From a virus (lineage: Duplodnaviria > Caudoviricetes): 64,000 bases of DNA. The position numbers and the translations under genes are program-made. The stretch spans positions 34,317 to 98,316 of the IMG/VR virus record IMGVR_UViG_2597490289_000004. One strand, 5' to 3'. Shown here piece after piece: positions 186 to 58,567 of the stretch; positions within the stretch are counted from its first letter, which is position 1; each line of letters starts with the position of its first letter. The notes under the pieces were generated by a model. That model was not told the origin of the DNA, ran no database searches, and saw only the letters and a list, made by a program, of their open reading frames with translations.

Positions 186-2012
186 ATGAACTCAAGATTA
201 TGTCCAGGATATTATTCTGCAGATTCAGCTAATTTTTTAGTTGAATATAGAGGAAATTTTAAAAATGAAATAGATAATGTATCATACGCTTGTGGAGATA
301 TATTAACAAATACTATAGGAGTCATATCATTACCTTATGAATATTTAGATCAAGTATTGATAGATGTTCCATCAATTAAGTTTATTGATTTTAGAAGTAT
401 GTCTGTATTGCAAGATATTTCTCCAAGTTCAATTGATCAGATATTAGCAATTAAAAAAAATCCATATTTAAATTTAACAGGAAAAGGTGTACTTGTAGGA
501 ATTGTAGATACAGGAATAGATTATTTAAACAATGAATTTATTAGAGAGGATGGAACATCAAGAATAGCTGCAATATGGGATCAGACGATACAGGATGTTA
601 AAGCAGAATCAGTTTATTTAGGAAATATTTATTCTAATGAAGAAATAAATAAAGCAATAAATGCATATAAAAATAATCAAGATCCCTATTCCATTGTTCC
701 ATCAAAAGACGATATAAATCATGGAACTGAAATGGCTGGAATAATTGGAGCTAGGGGGTATAATGGAGAATTTCAAGGAGTTGCAAATGATTGTGAATTT
801 GTAATTGTAAAACTCTTAGAATCTTTAAATTTTCAAAAAATTTTACAGTCAAACAATGTAAAATACACACCAATATATAATTCTGCCGAAATTGTAGCAG
901 GAATAGAATATTTAAAAAACTATTCAATAAGTATGAACAAACCTATAGTTATTTATTTAGGTATTGGTGCAACAGAAGGAAGTCATGACGGTAATAATTT
1001 GATTTCGAAATATTTGACTTCTATAGCAAGCATAAGGGGAGTCGCCTTAGTTGCAGGAGTTGGTAATGAAGGAGCAGCAGAAGGTCATGTATCAGGAACT
1101 ATTGAAAATGTAGGTGAAACAGATAGCATTGAATTAAACATACCTAGAGAAATGAAAAATTTCTCTTTTCAAATATGGGTAAAAAGACCAAATAAAATGT
1201 CGCTCAATGTTATTTCACCTACTGGAGAAGAAAGTAGTTTTATTCAAGCTAAAAGAAATAAAAGAGAAGAAATTAATTTTGTTTTTTCAAATGCTAAATT
1301 AAAAATCAATTATTATATGCCAGAAGATTTTTCAGGTCACGAAGTTATCCAAGTGATTTTTGAAGATATAAATCCTGGTATATGGAAATTCATTTTAAGA
1401 GGGGACTATATAAGTGATGGTGAGTATAATGCTTGGCTTCAACCTAAAGTTACGTTGCCAGAAAATACAAAGTTTTTAGAACCTGATCCATTTAGTACAT
1501 TAACAATTCCATCAACTGCAAGAAAAATTATTACAGTTTCTTATCATGGATTAGTTAATGAGTCTTTAATTGCAACTTCAGGAAAAGGATTTAATACTAA
1601 TGGTTTAATTAATCCTGACATTGCTACGGTTGGTATAAACATTTTAACAACAAAGGCATTAGGAGAAACTACTGTTGTATCAGGAAGTTCAGCTGCTACA
1701 GCTGTGGTTGCTGGAGTATGTGCATTACTTTTGCAATGGGGAATTGTTGATGGAAATGATACTACTATGTATTCAACAAAAGTTAGGAGTTATTTAGTAT
1801 ATGGTGCATATAGAAAGCCTGAACTTGTATACCCAAGTAGAGAAATTGGATATGGAAGTCTTGACATACTAGGAACATTTAATATTATAGGTAGAAAATA
1901 TATGAGATCTAGAAAAAACATAATACTTAAAAACAAAAATTTTATTGAGTATAAAGTTAATAAATTATTTATAAGAGTTCCAAAGGAGATTATGCCAAAT
2001 GCCAAAATATAA
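186..2012 (+). CDS. Subtilisin-like S8 serine protease (clostridial CspA/B/C-like)
   Basis: Triad motifs IVDTGID, NHGTEMAG, VSGSSAA; WDQT and jelly-roll-type insertion typical of Csp proteases. Confidence 0.9.
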   Translation: MNSRLCPGYYSADSANFLVEYRGNFKNEIDNVSYACGDILTNTIGVISLPYEYLDQVLIDVPSIKFIDFRSMSVLQDISPSSIDQILAIKKNPYLNLTGKGVLVGIVDTGIDYLNNEFIREDGTSRIAAIWDQTIQDVKAESVYLGNIYSNEEINKAINAYKNNQDPYSIVPSKDDINHGTEMAGIIGARGYNGEFQGVANDCEFVIVKLLESLNFQKILQSNNVKYTPIYNSAEIVAGIEYLKNYSISMNKPIVIYLGIGATEGSHDGNNLISKYLTSIASIRGVALVAGVGNEGAAEGHVSGTIENVGETDSIELNIPREMKNFSFQIWVKRPNKMSLNVISPTGEESSFIQAKRNKREEINFVFSNAKLKINYYMPEDFSGHEVIQVIFEDINPGIWKFILRGDYISDGEYNAWLQPKVTLPENTKFLEPDPFSTLTIPSTARKIITVSYHGLVNESLIATSGKGFNTNGLINPDIATVGINILTTKALGETTVVSGSSAATAVVAGVCALLLQWGIVDGNDTTMYSTKVRSYLVYGAYRKPELVYPSREIGYGSLDILGTFNIIGRKYMRSRKNIILKNKNFIEYKVNKLFIRVPKEIMPNAKI

Positions 2013-3720
2013 ATCTAATATACCTAGAGATATTTTTCATAATACAGATTATAAACACTATATTGTTCAATATCAAGGAAAAGTAAATGATGAAGCATTG
2101 CAAAAGGAAGGATATTATATAGCAATAATTAATGACAAGTATGCTATAATTTCAACCCAAAAAGGGAAAAAAATTAATGTTGATGACCCATTATTTTCGG
2201 ATATAGTGTATATAAAAGGAACTGAAACTTATACCCTTGAAGAAATTAGCCCTATAGAAGCATCACAAGTAAGGAATGTACAAATAAATCTACCACTTCA
2301 ATTAACCGGAAAAGGAGTGGTTGTTGGTATTATTGATACTGGAATTGATTATTTAAGTGATGAATTTATGACTTTGCAGGGAGATACTAGAATAGACTGT
2401 ATATGGGATCAGACAATAACATCAGATAAAGATGGTGAGATTGAGCTTATACCATATGGAGCTTTATATACAAAAGAAAAAATAAATGAAGCAATAAAAA
2501 ATTATAATGAAGGAAAAGCTCCTTATGAAATTGTACCAAGTATAGATGAATTTGGGCATGGTACTAGTATGAGTGGCATAATAGGCGCTACTGGTAAAAA
2601 TCCAGAACTTAAAGGAGTTGCACCAGATTGTAAGTTTGCAATTGTAAAGCTCATAGAAGATTATTCCAATAAAGCTGCATTTGATGCTAAAATACCAATA
2701 TATAATATTACTTCAATATTTTCTGCATTAGAGTTTTTATATGAATATGCATTAAATAATTCTGTGCCAATGGTCATATACCTTCCACTTGGAAGTAACT
2801 CTGGAAACCATAGAGGAAATGGTATTTTGCCAGAGTATATAGAGTCAATTTCTAATAGTAGAGGCATAGTTGTAGTAACAGGTGCAGGAAATGAAAGAGA
2901 TAAGGGAGGTCATGCATCTGGATCTATATCAAATGTAGATGAAGCAAGAAACATAGAATTAAATGTATCCCCAGAACAAAAATATTTATGGGCAGAAATT
3001 TGGGTAGCTCCACCTAATATAATGACCGTTGATATAGTTTCACCATCAGGAGAAAACACAGGTGTAATTCCAGCTTTAATAAATCTTAGTGAAGATTATA
3101 ATTTTATTTTTGAAAAAACATCAATAAAAGTTGATTTTTATATTCCAGAAGAAAATACAGGAGATGAATTAATACGTATAGAATTTTTTAATTTGCAACC
3201 AGGAATATGGAAAATAAAATTAATAGCTAATATGGTATTGGATGGAGCATATAACATATGGATACCACAGTATGGATTATCTATAGGAGATACATCTTTA
3301 AGTCCTTCTGATCCTTTTGGTACATTTACCACTCCTGGTGGAGCAACTTCGATAATTACAGTAGCAGCGTATAATCAAAATAATAACAATATAGTAAATT
3401 ATTCAGGAATGTCATTTTTAGATGATTATATTGACAGAGTTGATATTGCAGCAGGTGGTGTAAATGCATTAGCTGTAGCTCCTAATAATGAAACTAAAGT
3501 AGTAAATGGTACAAGTGTTGCAGCAGCAGTTGTAGCTGGAACATGTGCAATATTATTTGAATGGGGAATAATAGAAGGAAATGATCCATATATGTATTCT
3601 CAAACCATGAAGACTTATTTGACTAGAGGTACTAGAAAAAGACCAGGGGATACATATCCTAATCCAGAATGGGGATATGGGATATTAGATGTACTTGGAA
3701 TTTTTTCTAATATGACTTAA
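1999..3720 (+). CDS. Second tandem S8 serine protease (Csp-like)
   Basis: IIDTGID, GHGTSMSG, NGTSVAAA, YPNPEWGYG; paralogous to and overlapping the upstream gene. Confidence 0.9.
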   Translation: MPKYKSNIPRDIFHNTDYKHYIVQYQGKVNDEALQKEGYYIAIINDKYAIISTQKGKKINVDDPLFSDIVYIKGTETYTLEEISPIEASQVRNVQINLPLQLTGKGVVVGIIDTGIDYLSDEFMTLQGDTRIDCIWDQTITSDKDGEIELIPYGALYTKEKINEAIKNYNEGKAPYEIVPSIDEFGHGTSMSGIIGATGKNPELKGVAPDCKFAIVKLIEDYSNKAAFDAKIPIYNITSIFSALEFLYEYALNNSVPMVIYLPLGSNSGNHRGNGILPEYIESISNSRGIVVVTGAGNERDKGGHASGSISNVDEARNIELNVSPEQKYLWAEIWVAPPNIMTVDIVSPSGENTGVIPALINLSEDYNFIFEKTSIKVDFYIPEENTGDELIRIEFFNLQPGIWKIKLIANMVLDGAYNIWIPQYGLSIGDTSLSPSDPFGTFTTPGGATSIITVAAYNQNNNNIVNYSGMSFLDDYIDRVDIAAGGVNALAVAPNNETKVVNGTSVAAAVVAGTCAILFEWGIIEGNDPYMYSQTMKTYLTRGTRKRPGDTYPNPEWGYGILDVLGIFSNMT

Positions 3721-4138: not shown

Positions 4139-4339
4139 ATGGGAGTTAAGAATAAATTAAAAGAGATTCGAATGAGAGAATATTTAATGAACCAAACTGA
4201 ATTTGCAAAATTACTAGATGCTCCAAGAAGTACGTATTCTCAATGGGAAAGTGGTCTAAGTAATCCTACATTAGAAAAATCCTTTGAAATAGCTAAAAAA
4301 TTGAATAAAAAAATAACTGAAATATGGCATTTTGAATAG
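4139..4339 (+). CDS. Xre-family HTH regulator
   Basis: MGVKNKLKEIR...QTEFAKLL...YSQWESG..NPTLE; same N-terminus as 57360 ORF. Confidence 0.9.
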   Translation: MGVKNKLKEIRMREYLMNQTEFAKLLDAPRSTYSQWESGLSNPTLEKSFEIAKKLNKKITEIWHFE

Positions 4340-4398
4340 TGCCTTATTTTTTTTTATAAGATTACTTAAAAATAATAAAATTTTCTAAAATTTAAGCA

Positions 4399-4425
4399 AC
4401 TTTTCTAAAATAACAGCATAGTATA
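4399..4425 (+). promoter_or_regulatory. Candidate SigK/SigE-type promoter for parM
   Basis: AC-N16-CATAGTATA; AC-N16-CATA spacing conserved at 57636-57660. Confidence 0.45.
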
Positions 4426-4457
4426 AACTATAAGATTAATCAAAAGGAGTTAAATTT

Positions 4458-5336
4458 ATGAAAAATTATTCGATTTTAGGTGTTGATGTTGGAAATTCTA
4501 CTTGCAAAACTAACACTGGTGTTTTATTTAATTCTAAAATTACAGAGGTTGAACCTTTTGGAAAAACAGATACTTTATTTATAGATAAAAAATATTACTG
4601 GCTGGGAGAAGGGGAGTACGATACAACTTATAGAAAAGTAGACAAAATAAATTATATAAATTTTTTATTTGGAGCTTTGGCCCTAAGTACAAATACAGTT
4701 AGAAATTATGTGGTTCTAGGATTACCATTAAGTCAATACAAAGAAGATAAATCAGCCTTGATAAATATGGTTTTATCTAATAAAGAAAAATATACAAAAA
4801 TTAATGGAGTAGAAAAACACTTAATAATAGATGATATAGAAGTGTTTCCAGAAGGTGTAGTTACTTTAGATGATGAATATGAAGGAATTGTTGTTGATAT
4901 AGGAGGAAGAACAACGGATTGCGCATTAGTTATTAATGAAAGAGGAAGAAGAAGGATATTAAATCCAATAAGCTTGCCATGTGGAACCATAAATCTGTAT
5001 ACAGATTTTATAAAAAAATTAAATAATAAATTCAGTTTGGATTTAGTTATGAATGATGCAGAAAGAATAATTAAAAATGGATTAATTTTAGATGGAAGAA
5101 ATACAAATATAGATTTTGCCATGGACGTATATAGAGCTTTCACAGAGAATCTTATAACACAATTACAGGTTGAATATAGCTTAAGAACAAATTCTATATA
5201 TCTTACTGGGGGAGGAGTTATATCTTTATATAAAACCATAAAAGAAAGGCTAGGAAATGGAGTTTCACTTCAAGCAAACTCTATTTACGCTAATACAAAG
5301 GCTTATTATGAATTGGGGTGTTCAATATGGCAGTAG
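4458..5336 (+). CDS. ParM/StbA actin-like ATPase
   Basis: GVDVGNSTCK, VFPEG, VDIGGRTTD, LTGGG actin-fold motifs. Confidence 0.9.
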   Translation: MKNYSILGVDVGNSTCKTNTGVLFNSKITEVEPFGKTDTLFIDKKYYWLGEGEYDTTYRKVDKINYINFLFGALALSTNTVRNYVVLGLPLSQYKEDKSALINMVLSNKEKYTKINGVEKHLIIDDIEVFPEGVVTLDDEYEGIVVDIGGRTTDCALVINERGRRRILNPISLPCGTINLYTDFIKKLNNKFSLDLVMNDAERIIKNGLILDGRNTNIDFAMDVYRAFTENLITQLQVEYSLRTNSIYLTGGGVISLYKTIKERLGNGVSLQANSIYANTKAYYELGCSIWQ

Positions 5337-10546: not shown

Positions 10547-11476
10547 ATGTCAATGTTTTGTTATCAATGTCAAGAAACAGCAGGGTGCAAAGGCTGTACT
10601 AAAGTAGGTGTTTGTGGTAAAGACGAACATGTAGCAAAGGCGCAAGATTTATTAATATATGTAACTAAAGGACTAGCTATAGTAAGTAATGAGGGAAGAA
10701 AAGTTGGAGTTATAGATAGTAAAGTTGATAAATACATAACAGAAAATTTATTTACAACAATTACAAATGCTAATTTTGATAGAGATTCTATTTTAGATAG
10801 AGTAAGAGAAACTTTAAAATTAAGAGAAATTCTAAAAGCTAAAGTTATTAAAGCTGGTGGTAAAGTTGGAGAAGTAAAAGTAAGTGGTGGTTTCTTCAAA
10901 AAAATATTTGGAATGCAAACTACAGAGATGATAATGCCAGATGCAGCAACTTGGACAGCTGATAATATAATAGAATTTGATGTAAAGGCTGAAAAAGTTG
11001 GGGTACTTGCAACAGAAAATGAGGATATAAGAAGCTTAAGAGAACTTATAACTTATGGATTAAAAGGATTATCTGCTTATATGAAACATGCTATGAACTT
11101 AAAATATAACAATGAAGAAGTTCATGGATTTATGGCAAGAGCATTAGCAGCTACATTAGATGATAGTTTAACTGTTGATGATTTAGTTGCACTTGCATTA
11201 GAAGCTGGTAAATTTGGTGTAGATGGTATGGCATTACTTGATAAAGCTAATACTGAAAGTTATGGCCATCCTGAAATAACTACTGTAGATATTGGAGTTA
11301 GAACTAATCCAGGAATATTAATTTCAGGACATGATTTAAAAGATCTAGAGATGTTACTTAAACAAACAGAAGGAACTGGAGTAGATGTATATACTCATGG
11401 AGAAATGCTTGCTGGACAATACTACCCAAAATTCAAGAAATATAAACACTTTGCAGGAAATTATGGTAATGCATGA
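10547..11476 (+). pseudogene. hcp: Hybrid cluster protein (hydroxylamine reductase), 5' part interrupted by prophage
   Basis: MFCYQCQE...[22 protein letters not shown]; ends at GNYGNA* where the family continues with W residues; about half of normal length. Confidence 0.9.
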
Positions 11477-11496: not shown

Positions 11497-12962
11497 TAAA
11501 TAGTAATTTTATTTTTATATGGATCATATTGCAAATTAGTAAATATCAGTTTTAGAATTCTATTTTTCTCTTTTGTAGACTTTAACTTGTTAAATTCAAT
11601 TATTTTATTATAAATAAATTCTGAGCTAGTATCATTAGCTTTTTTTTGCATTTCTAAAAGTTTCTCAATTTCTATTTTGTTTTTTATTTCATTATTTCTT
11701 TGTGTAAGTTCCTCAATTTTTTCTATAAAAATTTTAGAGGCTTCAGTACTCAATAAAGCAACTTTTTCAACCAAACCATTTATTGCATTATTGTTTTTAT
11801 TAAGTTGTTTTTCTAAATTTGATATATTTGACTCTCTGCCTTCTTTGGGATCAGAAAATAATTTTTTAAATATATCTTTATTTTCTAGCTGTTTAAGGAA
11901 CTGAGATATTTTTTCTTCAAGTAAATCAGCTTTTATGTATTTCTTATTTTTACATTTCTCTTTTGATTTATCTATTCCAGTCTTGGTTCTGTTTATTCTA
12001 TTTTGACACACATAATATCTAACTTTATTTGATTGGGAAAGTTGATAATAACCTCCACAATAAGGGCATTTTAATACAGAAGATAAAAAATTAACTTCAC
12101 TTGTATTTTTAAATTGCTCTTTTCTTTCATCAAGTTGCATTTGCACTTTCAACCATATGTTTGAATCTAAAACACCAATATGCTTTCCGACAATAGCAAT
12201 AGGGGTATTATTTATTTTCCCATATGTCATATATCCACTTTTATTATCAACTTGCCCTATAACTTCATACCCCTTTGATTTTAAATAATTAGTTACTTCC
12301 TTGGAGGATTTTACATATATAGGGTTCCTTAAAACTTTTCTATACCCCTCCCTACTAATTGTGATTCCTTTTTCTTTTAAAAATTTGTATCCAAGAAATA
12401 AACTTCCATTATCTAAATATGAGTTGAAATATGAATGTATTAAATCAGAATCAATTATTTGTAAGCAACTTTTTTTGTTTTCTTTTATAATTTTACATCC
12501 CTTTGGAACAGTACCACCAGTATAATAACCTTTTCTAGCTAATTGCAACATATTATCTTTTACACGTTCAGCAATAGTTTCTCTTTCTAACTGTGCAAAC
12601 ACAGAAGCTATATAAATCATAGCTCTGCCCATTGGCGTGCTTGTATCAAATTGTTCTTTAATACTTATAAAAGTAACATTATACTTTTGTAACAATTCCA
12701 ATGTTGATGAAAAATCTGCTACATTTCTACTTATTCTATCTAGCCTATAGCAAATCAGTGCATCAAACTTATTCATTTTACATTCTAATATCAATCTTTT
12801 AAATGCTGGCCTATTTATATTTTTCCCTGAATAGCCTTCATCTTCGAATATTTCATATTCGTTATCACCTTTAAAATAGGTTTTGCATAAATTTATTTGA
12901 GTTTTTATACTTTCAGAGTTTTCAACATAAACAGATTTTCTTGTATATATAGCTATTCTCAT
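11496..12962 (-). CDS. Large serine integrase
   Basis: IAIYTRKS catalytic Ser, YRLDRISR, recombinase domain, CPYCG zinc ribbon, coiled coil. Confidence 0.95.
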   Translation of the reverse strand: MRIAIYTRKSVYVENSESIKTQINLCKTYFKGDNEYEIFEDEGYSGKNINRPAFKRLILECKMNKFDALICYRLDRISRNVADFSSTLELLQKYNVTFISIKEQFDTSTPMGRAMIYIASVFAQLERETIAERVKDNMLQLARKGYYTGGTVPKGCKIIKENKKSCLQIIDSDLIHSYFNSYLDNGSLFLGYKFLKEKGITISREGYRKVLRNPIYVKSSKEVTNYLKSKGYEVIGQVDNKSGYMTYGKINNTPIAIVGKHIGVLDSNIWLKVQMQLDERKEQFKNTSEVNFLSSVLKCPYCGGYYQLSQSNKVRYYVCQNRINRTKTGIDKSKEKCKNKKYIKADLLEEKISQFLKQLENKDIFKKLFSDPKEGRESNISNLEKQLNKNNNAINGLVEKVALLSTEASKIFIEKIEELTQRNNEIKNKIEIEKLLEMQKKANDTSSEFIYNKIIEFNKLKSTKEKNRILKLIFTNLQYDPYKNKITI

Positions 12963-25604: not shown

Positions 25605-25856
25605 ATGAAGGATTATGTAGAAAATAGGGTAAAGGAAGTAGCTGAATTTACAGTAGAAACTAAATCTACTGTAAGAAATACTGCAAAAACATTTATGTAT
25701 TCAAAATCTACAATATATAAAGATTTAACAGAACGTTTAAGTAATATAGATCCAGTTTTATATAACCAAGTACACAGCGTATTAGTAGAAAATAAATCTC
25801 AAAGACATATTAGAGGTGGAAAGGCTACTCAAAGTAAATTTAAGGGGTTGATGTAG
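25605..25856 (+). CDS. spoIIID: SpoIIID-like sporulation transcription regulator
   Basis: MKDYVENRV...TVR..AK.F..SKSTIYKDLTERL...RHIRGGKAT. Confidence 0.9.
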   Translation: MKDYVENRVKEVAEFTVETKSTVRNTAKTFMYSKSTIYKDLTERLSNIDPVLYNQVHSVLVENKSQRHIRGGKATQSKFKGLM

Positions 25857-26761: not shown

Positions 26762-27286
26762 ATGCAAAAATATAAAAGAATACTTTATAAGGAAACAGAA
26801 GATAAATTATATAAATACTTCAATAGAGATAGAATATATAGAGGCTTGAATAGTCAATTAATTGTATTAAATAAACAGATAGATCAACTAAACAATGAAC
26901 TAAAAGATTGCAAGTATATCAATGTAGATGAGGAATCATCATCACCAAGTTTTGACGAAAGAGTACAAACATCATCTAGTTGTACAAGTTATGTTGAAAG
27001 CCAAGTAATTAAATTAACAGATATGAAGTTAAGAAGAAAAGAAAAAAAGGAACTGGAAAGAGAAAATATATTAAGTCAATTAGGTGATCTTGAATCAATA
27101 GTAGTAGAAATGGAATGGAAAGTAGGACAACTTAGGGACAATTATAAAAAAATGCTTTCCATGGTATATAAGGACAACATGAATGAAGTTCAAATATCTT
27201 TTAAATTGCATCTAAGCCAAAGCCAAGTGAATAAGAGAAAGAATAAGATACTAGAGCATATATTCATGTGGGAGAAATGGAATTAG
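26762..27286 (+). CDS. ArpU/RinA-like late transcription activator
   Basis: ERVQTSS motif, C-terminal sigma-4-like HTH; end of early region. Confidence 0.7.
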   Translation: MQKYKRILYKETEDKLYKYFNRDRIYRGLNSQLIVLNKQIDQLNNELKDCKYINVDEESSSPSFDERVQTSSSCTSYVESQVIKLTDMKLRRKEKKELERENILSQLGDLESIVVEMEWKVGQLRDNYKKMLSMVYKDNMNEVQISFKLHLSQSQVNKRKNKILEHIFMWEKWN

Positions 27287-28983: not shown

Positions 28984-29661
28984 ATGCTTAAAACAGACAG
29001 AAATGGTTTAATGAAAATACTTAATATTAATAAAAATGCATTAAAGCAAATTGAACGCAGAAATACATTAGGAAAAAGATTAAATCTTAAAGGTTATAAA
29101 CTTTTAGCTAAAGATAAAATGGGATTAACCAATGTCTATTATATTGAAGAATATGAATTTATAGAAGACAAACCTAGTAATAAAGCGATTATGACTAAAA
29201 AAGAAAAGAGAAGGATATATAGAAAGAGATATGAGAAAAAGCACAAAGAACAAGTTAAAGAACGCAGAAGAAAATACAGCAGAACTAATAGTTTTATAAA
29301 TTCAACAAAAATATATCAGAACAATAGGCGAGCAAGAGAAAAATACAATCAATATAATAGCATAACACTAGAACAATGGAAAGAATGTTTAAGATTTTTT
29401 GATAATAAATGTGCATACAGTGGCGAACAAAAAGAAGATGATCGATTATCATTAGATCATGTATTAGCATTAAGTAATGATGGTGATAATTTAATTTATA
29501 ATGTAGTGCCAGCAATTAATAAATATAATATAAACAAAGGTGAAAAACTATTTTTGCCATGGTATAAAAAACAATCTTTCTTTAGTGAAGAACGTCTTAA
29601 TAAAATATATGAGTGGCAAATATATGCTAAAAATAAATTTAAACAAAAGGGTACATTTTAA
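28984..29661 (+). CDS. HNH endonuclease
   Basis: CAYSG...SLDHVLALS..G.N...NVVPA...NINKG. Confidence 0.8.
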   Translation: MLKTDRNGLMKILNINKNALKQIERRNTLGKRLNLKGYKLLAKDKMGLTNVYYIEEYEFIEDKPSNKAIMTKKEKRRIYRKRYEKKHKEQVKERRRKYSRTNSFINSTKIYQNNRRAREKYNQYNSITLEQWKECLRFFDNKCAYSGEQKEDDRLSLDHVLALSNDGDNLIYNVVPAINKYNINKGEKLFLPWYKKQSFFSEERLNKIYEWQIYAKNKFKQKGTF

Positions 29662-29921
29662 AGGTATAACTACAAGGTATATATTAATACATATACTGTA
29701 GTTTACCCCGAAAAATGAACCCTTTTTATAATGCTATTTATATTAATTCATATATACTTATTAGCTTATATAAGAAGGTATTAAATTAGATGATTAATTA
29801 TATTAGAAAGTATTTAAAGACTTTCTATGGACTTAATAGATAAGTAAAAACACAGTATATTAATATGTAATCCATATAAATAAAACTGTAAATATGTAAG
29901 TAAATGAAATGAGGTGATATT

Positions 29922-36541: not shown

Positions 36542-36901
36542 ATGAAAGAATTAAGTACAATCCAAAAGAGAGAAAAATTAAATACTGTTAATATAAAAGG
36601 TGAGGTGGGTCCAGGAGGTGCTTATCATAAATATAATATAATATCTAATGATAATGGAATATTACTTGGAAGTGTGCAATTTCAAATGGGTCCTAGAAAT
36701 GAAACTAATTCAATAGCCGGAGTGATTGATTCTGATTTACTTGAAATAGTAAGAGATAGATTACAATGTTTTCAAACTGGGCCATTTAGTTCAAGGGAAA
36801 ATGCAATTGCACTAACTCATATTGAAGAAGCTTTAATGTGGATGAACAGAAGGGTAGAAGATAGAATTGAAAGAAATGTATTGGGAAGGAATGAGAAATA
36901 A
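36542..36901 (+). CDS. tad1: Thoeris anti-defence sponge Tad1
   Basis: [14 protein letters not shown]...GPGGAYH...[50 protein letters not shown] matches recalled C. botulinum prophage Tad1. Confidence 0.9.
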
Positions 36902-52254: not shown

Positions 52255-52407
52255 ATGAATTGGTTTGAAAAAGTACAAAGATATTTTTGTTGGGGATGTT
52301 ACAATAATACAGACGTTTGGGATTTTGTAAGTTATAAGAAAATAACAACAGAACAATATACTGAAATAACTAAAGTAGAATATACAGAAGTAAGACCAGT
52401 AGTTTAA
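52255..52407 (+). CDS. XkdX-family protein
   Basis: MNWFEKVQRYF...FV..KKITTEQYTEIT; not in ORF track. Confidence 0.8.
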   Translation: MNWFEKVQRYFCWGCYNNTDVWDFVSYKKITTEQYTEITKVEYTEVRPVV

Positions 52408-52498
52408 TTCGCAATAGGATTATAGGATAAATTAAATAACAGGCAATAGATAGGACCATACAGGTCTTTTTTTATTGCTTGTAAACAGGAGGAAAACA

Positions 52499-52636
52499 AT
52501 GAATGAAGATCTACAAAAATTTATAATTAGTTGTATGGAACTTGGAAAAGAATTATTAGATAAAGAAAATTTAAGTTCTAAAGAAGAACAATTCCTTAAA
52601 AATTTAGATGTAATTACAGATAAATATTTTAATTAG
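52499..52636 (+). CDS. 45-aa hypothetical protein
   Basis: RBS AGGAGG; MNEDLQKFIISCMELGKELL...; flanked by hairpins. Confidence 0.6.
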   Translation: MNEDLQKFIISCMELGKELLDKENLSSKEEQFLKNLDVITDKYFN

Positions 52637-52730
52637 AGAACGTTAAGTTGTTCTCTTTTTATTGTTCTAAAAAGGATTTAATGTTAATATGTAGAATTTA
52701 ATATTATAAAATAAAAAGAAGGTGATATAA

Positions 52731-52802
52731 ATGAGTGGTGGAACATGGGGTCTAGAATCAGGTGGATCATGGGGCTTTGATTCAGGCAATAGTTGGGGCT
52801 AA
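52731..52802 (+). CDS. 23-aa repeat peptide MSGGTWGLESGGSWGFDSGNSWG
   Basis: RBS AAGGTGA, SigH-like promoter AAAGGATTT-N11-GTAGAAT, terminator 52808-52834. Confidence 0.7.
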   Translation: MSGGTWGLESGGSWGFDSGNSWG

Positions 52803-52860
52803 AAATTAAAGGCAGTTTTTAACTGTCTTTTTTTATTGCTTAAAAATAGGAAGGTGTTAT

Positions 52861-57229: not shown

Positions 57230-57359
57230 AGTCTATCTCCTTGTAAATATATTATATTAATTATTTCATTTAAGTATATTTATGTCAATTATAACTAATA
57301 TTATCACCTCATAGAAATTGTTAACATTATATGGTAAAATTATTCTTAGAGGTGGTGAC

Positions 57360-57560
57360 ATGGGGGTTAAAAATAAATTATTAGAAATAAGGTTAAGCTT
57401 AGGATATAAAAATTCTAAAGACTTTGCTGACTTTTTAGGGATAAATAAAAGTATGTATAGCTTAATAGAAAATAATAAAAGGGTAGTTAATTTAGAAAAT
57501 GCATTTACAATAGCTGAAAAACTTAATATGAATATAGAGGATATTTGGTATAAAGAGTAA
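57360..57560 (+). CDS. Xre-family HTH regulator
   Basis: MGVKNKLLEIR; RBS GAGGTGG. Confidence 0.85.
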   Translation: MGVKNKLLEIRLSLGYKNSKDFADFLGINKSMYSLIENNKRVVNLENAFTIAEKLNMNIEDIWYKE

Positions 57561-57694
57561 TACTAAATATCCTCTTTTTTTATTTATATGAGAATAAAAT
57601 TTATACTTATGGAAATTTTTTTTATTAAAGTGGAAACTTTTATAAAAAGTGTGCATACATATATAACAAAGGACGAAGAAAAGGAGAAAAAATT

Positions 57695-58567
57695 ATGATT
57701 TTAGGTGTAGATATTGGTACCTATAGTGTAAAGACTTCTAACAAAGTTACATTTTTTAGTAAACTCACACAAGAAGAAAGCTTTACTGAAATAAATAAGA
57801 TTAATATAAATGGATCTAGTTATAACATAGGAGAAGGAGAATTCAGTACAGATTGGGATAAGAGTAGAAAAGAAAATACATTAATACTTCTATACTCAGC
57901 TATTTACAAGGGTGCTGAAGATAATATAAACCAAATTGTATTAGGATTGCCAGTACAACAATATAAGAAAAATAAAAATAATTTAATAGAACTTATAGAA
58001 AATAATAAATGTGCAAAAGTAGAAAATAGAAATTTAATTATTACAGATGTTACTGTAGCTCCAGAAGGTGCAAGTAGTTATTATTCTATAGACAGTAGTT
58101 TAAGAGAAGAAATAGGAAATAAGCAACTAATAATAATAGATATAGGAGGTAGGACTACAGATATTATAGTATTTCAAAACAAAGTTATAATTGATGTTAA
58201 AACTATTCCTATAGGTATGTTAAATATATACCAGGAGATTATAGACACAGTTAATACCCAACATACAGAAAGTTTACTTTTAGAGGATGGAGAAACTATA
58301 TTAAAAGATGGTTTATTTCTTAAAGGTAAGCAGCAAGATATTAACTTTGTACAACCTATTTTAAAAAGAAATTTTAATAGTGTATTTAAAGAAATACAAC
58401 TTAAATATAACACTAATAAAGGATATGTGTATTTAACAGGAGGAGGAAGTATATTGCTTAAGTTACCATTTAAAAATAGATTAAGTAATTTACTAATTTC
58501 TAATAATCCTATCTTTGATAATGCAATTGGTTTTGGAAAGGTTGGTGAATCATTGTGGCTAGAATAA
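57695..58567 (+). CDS. ParM/StbA actin-like ATPase
   Basis: GVDIGTYSVK, VAPEG, IDIGGRTTD, LTGGG. Confidence 0.9.
   Translation: MILGVDIGTYSVKTSNKVTFFSKLTQEESFTEINKININGSSYNIGEGEFSTDWDKSRKENTLILLYSAIYKGAEDNINQIVLGLPVQQYKKNKNNLIELIENNKCAKVENRNLIITDVTVAPEGASSYYSIDSSLREEIGNKQLIIIDIGGRTTDIIVFQNKVIIDVKTIPIGMLNIYQEIIDTVNTQHTESLLLEDGETILKDGLFLKGKQQDINFVQPILKRNFNSVFKEIQLKYNTNKGYVYLTGGGSILLKLPFKNRLSNLLISNNPIFDNAIGFGKVGESLWLE

Follow-up and report, generated by a model that had tools for sequence, protein, structure and literature searches.

What is encoded in the roughly 170 nt that separate the tail-fibre and lysis modules of a Clostridium prophage, where a promoter, a ribosome-binding site (RBS), a micro-ORF of octapeptide repeats and a terminator follow one another, and is it the peptide, or rather the RNA or the regulatory signals around it, that selection preserves? 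We addressed this question in a 64,000-nt stretch of DNA (hereafter, the window) comprising bases 34317–98316 of the 98,316-bp IMG/VR provirus record IMGVR_UViG_2597490289_000004 (28% G+C). ORF calling combined with Pfam and PHROGs searches revealed two tandem myovirus prophages in this record, both of which carry terminase, portal, sheath, tube, baseplate and tail fibre genes along with an XhlA-holin-lysozyme module. The genes 5' of the cassette, as assigned by Pfam, are Baseplate_J, Mu Gp48, a tail-collar fibre and XkdX (52255–52407). The cassette occupies the site where, in Clostridium myovirus prophages, the tail-fibre/XkdX module meets the lysis module; the elements of this site are the following:

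52499–52636, plus strand: 45-aa ORF MNEDLQKFIISCMELGKELLDKENLSSKEEQFLKNLDVITDKYFN, with its own RBS and terminator and without a promoter box
52635–52661, plus strand: upstream terminator, belonging to the 45-aa ORF; 8-bp stem (within 52635–52656) and T-run
52671–52699, plus strand: SigH-type promoter box by motif; AAAGGATTT at 52671–52679 (−35), 11-nt spacer, GTAGAATTT at 52691–52699 (−10)
52718–52726, plus strand: RBS GAAGGTGAT, 4 nt 5' of the ATG
52731–52802, plus strand: peptide ORF (ATG at 52731, stop at 52800–52802); 23 codons plus stop, encoding MSGGTWGLESGGSWGFDSGNSWG
52808–52837, plus strand: cassette terminator; 10-bp stem with 3-nt loop (52808–52830) and T-run
52861 (start), plus strand: XhlA, assigned by Pfam, 3' of the cassette
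53087 (start), plus strand: Hol44 holin, assigned by Pfam, after XhlA
53409 (start), plus strand: lysozyme with cell-wall-binding repeats, assigned by Pfam

The peptide MSGGTWGLESGGSWGFDSGNSWG is made of three S-G-x-x-W-G-(L/F/I)-(D/E/N) units, and Tandem Repeats Finder detects in its ORF a 24-nt period with 2.1 copies and 80% matches. The upstream terminator folds at −10.6 kcal/mol and the cassette terminator at −9.9 kcal/mol; no shuffled sequence equalled the stability of either (0/200 in each case). The preliminary description of the locus had listed the three repeats of 8-residue period, the good RBS, the promoter box, the terminator and the placement ahead of the lysis genes, and every one of these was recovered at the same position.

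The surroundings of the cassette contain several further features. The 45-aa ORF, for which no Pfam or PHROGs family was found, adjoins the peptide cassette in three of the six copies described below. A conserved non-coding stretch, TTCGCAATAGGAATATAGGAT, lies 3' of the XkdX stop (window 52405–52482) and is also present in three other loci (L189 11508–11592, L154 2922–3000 and L193 255–338); the terminators near the XkdX stop have GCAAT...ATTGC as their outer closing stem, and this accounts for the TTTTTATTGCTT ends that the units share. The early region of the second prophage encodes a homologue of the sporulation regulator SpoIIID (25605–25853, plus strand; Pfam E 7e-33), and among the head genes there is a protein with an Acb2/Tad1 hairpin domain (36542–36898, plus strand; E 3.5e-9); members of this family act as sponges of nucleotides used in defence signalling. 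A Prismane/hybrid-cluster-protein gene (10547–11473, plus strand) that spans only profile positions 1–262 of 513 abuts a large serine recombinase gene (11499–12962, minus strand), which suggests integration of the prophage into the Prismane gene. Two adjoining S8 subtilase genes (608 and 573 aa; 186–3717, plus strand), which may presumably encode host germination-type proteases, lie between the two prophages, and two similar pairs of HTH_3 and actin-like (ALP_N/MreB-like_C) genes, at 4139–5333 and 57318–58564 (plus strand), flank the second prophage and have the appearance of partition modules belonging to additional mobile elements.

At the DNA level, the cassette exists in six copies in five IMG/VR records. 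The present record holds two of these, one per tandem prophage; the second, at about 29599–29760 of the record (L001 1414–1575), lies in the first prophage, outside the window, and encodes MTGSTRGIESGGTWGFDSGNSWG. The two cassettes occupy equivalent junctions, and their alignment begins at the T-run of the terminator ahead of them and extends through their own terminator. Searching IMG/VR with a degenerate S-G-x-x-W-G-x-x-S-G-x-x-W-G-stop pattern yielded 29 stretches, among which four proved to be true relatives after translation:

L007: peptide MTGSSRGIESGGTWGIDSGNSWG, 3 units
L014: peptide MTGSTRGIESGGTWGFDSGNGWGFDSGNAWG, 4 units
L018: peptide MSGGTWGFDSGNSWG, 2 units
L029: peptide MSGGTWGLESGGSWGFNSGSPWGLDSGNGWG, 4 units

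The records of precisely these four relatives were also retrieved from IMG/VR with a 41-nt promoter string. A phmmer search with the 31-aa allele against 1.84 billion representatives produced two matches, one unrelated repeat protein and one true allele. The latter, WP_252242641.1 of Clostridium sp. ZS2 (45 aa), is the seventh allele; it has four units, has lost its stop codon and reads through the terminator. The seven alleles thus contain 2, 3, 3, 3, 4, 4 and 4 units, and every one of them is in frame. The preliminary description had let its case hang in part on frame-conserved homologues, and such homologues, in frame, are present both in IMG/VR and as WP_252242641.1.

This set of alleles allowed us to ask what is conserved. 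The ATG, a strong RBS and the reading frame are retained in every copy, and the length differences between alleles are exact multiples of 24 nt, that is, whole 8-codon units. The consensus unit is S-G-(G/N/S)-(small residue)-W-G-(L/F/I)-(D/E/N/S). Glycine occupies unit positions 2 and 6 in all 19 units and is encoded at each by three different codons (GGT, GGC and GGA), and the serine at position 1 is drawn from both the TCN and the AGY codon families. Tryptophan is found in 16 of the 19 units, with arginine in its place in three N-terminal T-type units; position 7 accepts only L, F or I, and the residues seen at position 8 are D, E or N, the consensus also allowing S. Column entropy at codon positions 1, 2 and 3 amounts to 6.49, 2.92 and 9.57, respectively, and pN is lower than pS in 15/15 allele pairs, these pairs being close relatives and hence not independent. 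In L007, which has an intact ORF, a different strong site, AAGGAGGG, takes the place of the usual RBS segment. The antisense frame, which is open in five of the six copies, shares wobble positions with the sense frame, so that the codon-position signal is partly common to both strands; the antisense ORF itself was rejected, as it has neither an ATG nor an RBS and is broken in L007. Altogether, the ORF is under protein-level constraint.

The flanks of the ORF present a different picture. Five of the six DNA copies show at most one difference from one another in the 60 nt that run from the −35 element up to the ATG, and the synonymous divergence of the ORF over those same five copies is 0.06–0.72 per site. 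The upstream 60 nt being far more conserved than the synonymous sites, the RNA or the promoter could be the main object of selection, not the peptide: the cassette would then be a small RNA or a transcriptional insulator, with an ORF that is incidental or aids RNA stability. The presence of a terminator just before the XhlA RBS in all 20 IMG/VR loci that encode a relative of this XhlA is consistent with such a module. However, the transcript without its terminator has no unusual degree of structure (z −1.41; 20 of 200 shuffled sequences were at least as stable), no Rfam match was found for the locus, the variation follows the codon structure with indels of whole 8-codon units, and the RBS lost in L007 was replaced by another strong RBS. 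We therefore regard selection on an RNA or a promoter-terminator module as quite unlikely.

The contrast between flank and ORF has three possible causes. First, the promoter and 5' UTR may be constrained base by base; second, the flanks may have been homogenised by recombination, the repeats keeping old polymorphism; and third, shuffling of units may inflate the apparent divergence. The combination of a conserved flank with a variable ORF resembles that at pherotype or arms-race loci; however, the cassette is not accompanied by any receptor or partner gene.

The promoter had been assigned in the preliminary description to the class recognised by SigH, and we assessed this assignment with the pattern RNAGGAWWW-N11-12-RNNGAATWW, which we take to be the SigH consensus. 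The cassette box (AGGA-17 nt-GAAT) fits all positions of RNAGGAWWW-N11-RNNGAATWW and is identical in five of the six DNA copies; in L007 it carries a single change, G to A, at a consensus purine position. Strict boxes with an N11–12 spacer occur five times in the 98-kb record, compared with 0.67 times in shuffled sequences, and two of the five are the peptide cassettes. When the search was restricted to N11 and extended to the five records, six of eight matches were cassettes, and a reversed-pattern control gave 0. As a further control, the 400 nt upstream of spo0A were inspected in three related Clostridium genomes: one has a strict match (AGAGGATTT...ATAGAATTA), the second a box that is one position off (AAAGGATTT...GTAGAAAT), and the third no box in this interval. 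The claim agrees with these spo0A boxes, which are alike, and with the SigH motifs given in PMC12456013, namely AGGA and GAAT with a 17–18-nt spacer, like those of B. subtilis and C. difficile, the cassette spacer being 17 nt. An overlapping, weak SigA-type reading (TTGTTC-17-TAATAT with a TG extension, 52662–52690) was seen by eye, was not listed by the scan of the region and may apply instead. The promoter thus fits the SigH type by its motif.

Transcriptional regulators of phrog_36 are encoded 5' of both terminase modules (L188 2897–3415 and window 26762–27283, plus strand) and are candidate late-gene activators. In both prophages, the sequence in front of the phrog_36 regulator gene and of the terminase genes was read and contained no AGGA...GAAT box of this kind, which indicates that the cassette box is not a phage late promoter. 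Elsewhere, in record G002, a strict SigH-type box directly precedes a 159-aa ORF (MAHKVFVSYHHANDQ...; L215 1501–2044); this ORF lies after a membrane-protein gene (238 aa) 3' of the lysis module and may be a defence-type moron.

Public sequencing data provided little coverage of the region, at most 0.30 of the sampled words being present in any one run. The sole RNA run with any of the stretch (X20) contained only fragments of XhlA and of the lysozyme repeats, less than 90% alike, and left the cassette uncovered. At the DNA level, two contigs from run X7 contain the 5' part of the cassette, both ending at 52766, and run X1 has no cover over 52516–52823, which has the look of an empty site but, with no contig joint reported, is given no weight here.

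Terminators bound the cassette on both sides, and the upstream one would insulate it from tail-gene transcription and form its left border. In L014, the position of the cassette terminator is taken by a hairpin unrelated to it (−14.2 kcal/mol). What follows the cassette depends on the copy: XhlA, Hol44 and lysozyme; a 137-aa holin and lysozyme; or a lysis set of 66-aa, 79-aa and 267-aa proteins. The cassette of the first prophage precedes a 411-aa Big_2/DUF11 secreted protein (phrog_10059), which is in turn followed by XhlA, holin and lysozyme. Three types of lysis module are accordingly found behind the cassette, and the cassette itself occurs in 2 of the 20 XhlA-related loci.

This arrangement bears on the possibility that the ORF is a cis-acting, Trp-sensing leader peptide, the translation of which controls read-through of the terminator into the lysis genes. 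The three Trp codons, a gap of 5 nt between stop codon and terminator stem, and the location of the lysis genes directly 3' would all suit an attenuator. Yet the distance from stop to stem, 5 nt in four copies, is 11 nt in L007 and L029; the downstream gene varies among XhlA, the 137-aa holin, the 66-aa protein and the 411-aa Big_2 protein; and the cassette is missing from 18 of the 20 related lysis modules. The terminator was the only stable fold, with no alternative antiterminator fold found, and the conserved residues include ones other than Trp. Attenuation is accordingly a very improbable function for the cassette.

The organisation is more reminiscent of phage morons, autonomous promoter-gene-terminator units located between late-gene modules, of which bor and lom of phage lambda are examples. 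Like morons, the cassette has its own promoter and terminator, lies at a tail/lysis junction and is present in some and absent from other close relatives among the phages, and its promoter is unlike the other promoters of the phage. It differs from known morons in its payload of 15–31 codons, the octarepeat and the allele-variable number of units. Judging by these sequence features, the cassette appears to be an autonomous, insulated, accessory moron at a recombination-prone module junction, and the whole element is very probably a translated moron. The kind of moron is known; its payload is without a Pfam or PHROGs family and without a counterpart in the literature searched.

The distribution of the peptide was examined in several collections. 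The preliminary description had proposed tBLASTn and neighbourhood analysis, and the outcome differed between databases: GenBank phages yielded no relative of the peptide (tblastn with the peptide, blastn with the locus), the only matches being a chance one to benA and a holin, whereas the pattern search of IMG/VR recovered frame-conserved copies at lysis-module junctions. Among contigs representing one genome per species, the specific peptide pattern and a 36-nt promoter string each gave 0 matches; with the broad S-G-x-x-W-G pattern, chance and microsatellite matches dominated among the matches listed. In metagenome contigs, the specific pattern matched twice, both times by chance. A DNA search of 130 genomes from the genus of the related Clostridium metagenome-assembled genome G001 matched AT-rich promoter-like stretches only, and the coding part was absent from the 125 genomes scored; the peptide pattern was likewise absent from the other five. 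An exact look-up of six versions of the peptide in a protein collection gave no match. The Atlas contains the 31-aa allele letter for letter, with no credible look-alike of it there (best 0.76). The peptide has no family in PHROGs. The peptide family thus appears to be real but very narrow, and this narrow distribution means that the copies are all close relatives and that counts over them are not independent.

What could such a peptide do? The alleles have 15–31 residues, a net charge of −1 to −3 and at least two Trp residues spaced 8 residues apart. No allele has a hydrophobic stretch or a leader, the sequences starting with MSGG or MTGS. All 16 Trp-bearing units present the Trp in an S/T/G/A/P-W-G context. 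AlphaFold2, run on the 7-row alignment, gave a mean pLDDT of 50.3, a pTM of 0.10 and no secondary structure, and thus predicts a disordered peptide. A comparison of the 148 ORFs of the record with Pfam, together with 37 PHROGs queries, identified no receptor, transporter or modifying enzyme; among the families for which no member was found are radical-SAM enzymes, cyclases, prenyltransferases, proteases, peptidase-transporters, TPR receptors and reverse transcriptases. The absence of a signal peptide and of a modifying enzyme, remarked on in the preliminary description, is therefore confirmed for the alleles and for the ORFs of the record, respectively. In the literature searched, we found nothing on this peptide and no bacterial precedent for the motif.

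The absence of these elements weighs differently on the three roles that had been put forward for the peptide, namely a signal, a multi-core precursor of a modified peptide, and a Trp-anchored protein decoy. Repeated core-like units with invariant Trp, Ser and Gly would be expected of a multi-core RiPP precursor, in which Trp or Ser would be modified by host enzymes encoded elsewhere. But the peptide has no leader or recognition sequence, its first unit beginning at residue 2, the record encodes no modifying enzyme or transporter family, and the cassette moves alone between prophages. Lacking both leader and enzyme, the precursor role was not borne out and is most improbable.

The signal role is drawn by analogy with Phr and other RRNPP pro-peptides. 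In Bacillus, Phr peptide genes are expressed from SigH-type promoters. The cassette shares with the Rap-Phr and AimP systems a small peptide gene, a SigH-type promoter, a temperate phage context and diverse alleles; the peptide might be freed by an exporter or by phage lysis, perhaps cut to octapeptides, and perceived by a receptor encoded elsewhere, the alleles representing pherotypes. The link between SigH-type promoters and Bacillus phr genes, the diversity of the peptide between near-identical flanks, which is like that of pherotype loci, and the proximity of the lysis genes would all be in keeping with communication. Unlike those pro-peptides, however, the peptide has no signal sequence or hydrophobic N-terminus, and neither an adjacent receptor gene nor any TPR/RRNPP-type receptor or ABC/PptAB-type exporter is present in the 98-kb record; moreover, the invariant residues recur in every unit instead of marking one mature C-terminal peptide. 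Of the signal proposal, the SigH-type promoter stood, and the export signal and the adjacent receptor did not, which leaves communication unlikely.

The repeat also has look-alikes outside phages. In the prion octapeptide repeat (PF03991), which has the same 8-residue period and a G-G-x-W-G core, His anchors copper, and a metal-binding octarepeat might be imagined by analogy. The match to this family, Prion_octapep, is weak (E 0.0024), and the only paper retrieved with any of four 6-residue motifs concerns a marsupial prion-protein gene. Yet the 18.3 bits scored fall below the gathering cut-off of 32, the similarity is one of low complexity, and the copper-anchoring His is absent from all alleles. 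The resemblance to the prion repeat is convergent and reflects low complexity, and metal binding is hardly credible.

GW/WG hook motifs, known from eukaryotic GW182 proteins and plant-virus silencing suppressors, provide another comparison. The peptide resembles these hooks in having several Trp residues flanked by Gly and Ser on a backbone predicted to be disordered, which suggests by analogy multivalent binding to Trp pockets; it differs from them in its bacterial context and in being known here from sequence alone. In its most specific form, this comparison would make the peptide a phage counterpart of the GW/WG hook, produced at the onset of stationary phase or sporulation and plugging the Trp pockets of a host regulator or defence protein, and arms-race diversification of the repeat number and of the x positions would then account for variable coding repeats between near-identical flanks. 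One conceivable target under this reading is a prokaryotic Argonaute. A Piwi domain is present in only 11 of the 127 genus genomes scored and absent from the closest genome, G001, and none of the papers listed in a literature search linked GW motifs to prokaryotic Argonautes. We consider this specific version very unlikely.

Among the three roles initially suggested, that of a decoy or ligand is the least contradicted, by inference only. The preliminary interpretation was upheld in part, namely in its frame-conserved gene and its SigH-type motif. The reading that we favour, tentatively and at somewhat less than an even chance, is that of a leaderless, disordered, acidic peptide that is made in the lysogen from the SigH-type promoter and acts as a multivalent, Trp-anchored ligand of a protein. 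Under this ligand reading, host RNA polymerase with the transition-phase sigma factor SigH would transcribe the cassette, and expression in the lysogen would then coincide with the arrest of growth or the onset of sporulation and would not come only from the phage late operon. The product would stay in the cytoplasm, where its Trp side chains, one every 8 residues along a flexible Gly/Ser backbone, could dock into pockets of a host or rival-phage protein; avidity would depend on the number of units and specificity on the variable x positions.

Comparison of sequences was thus enough to recognise a repeat ORF of only 15–31 codons as real. Gene callers mostly miss genes of this length, and the 45-aa read-through allele is the only one in protein collections. 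If the peptide has no phenotype, it is a narrow-range curiosity. The cassette provides a compact case in which an accessory gene of a prophage appears to be under the control of the host's transition-phase sigma factor. If the peptide modulates sporulation, prophage induction or defence via multivalent Trp contacts, it would represent a new type of phage-host effector and would offer a simple scaffold for studies of short-linear-motif binding in bacteria.
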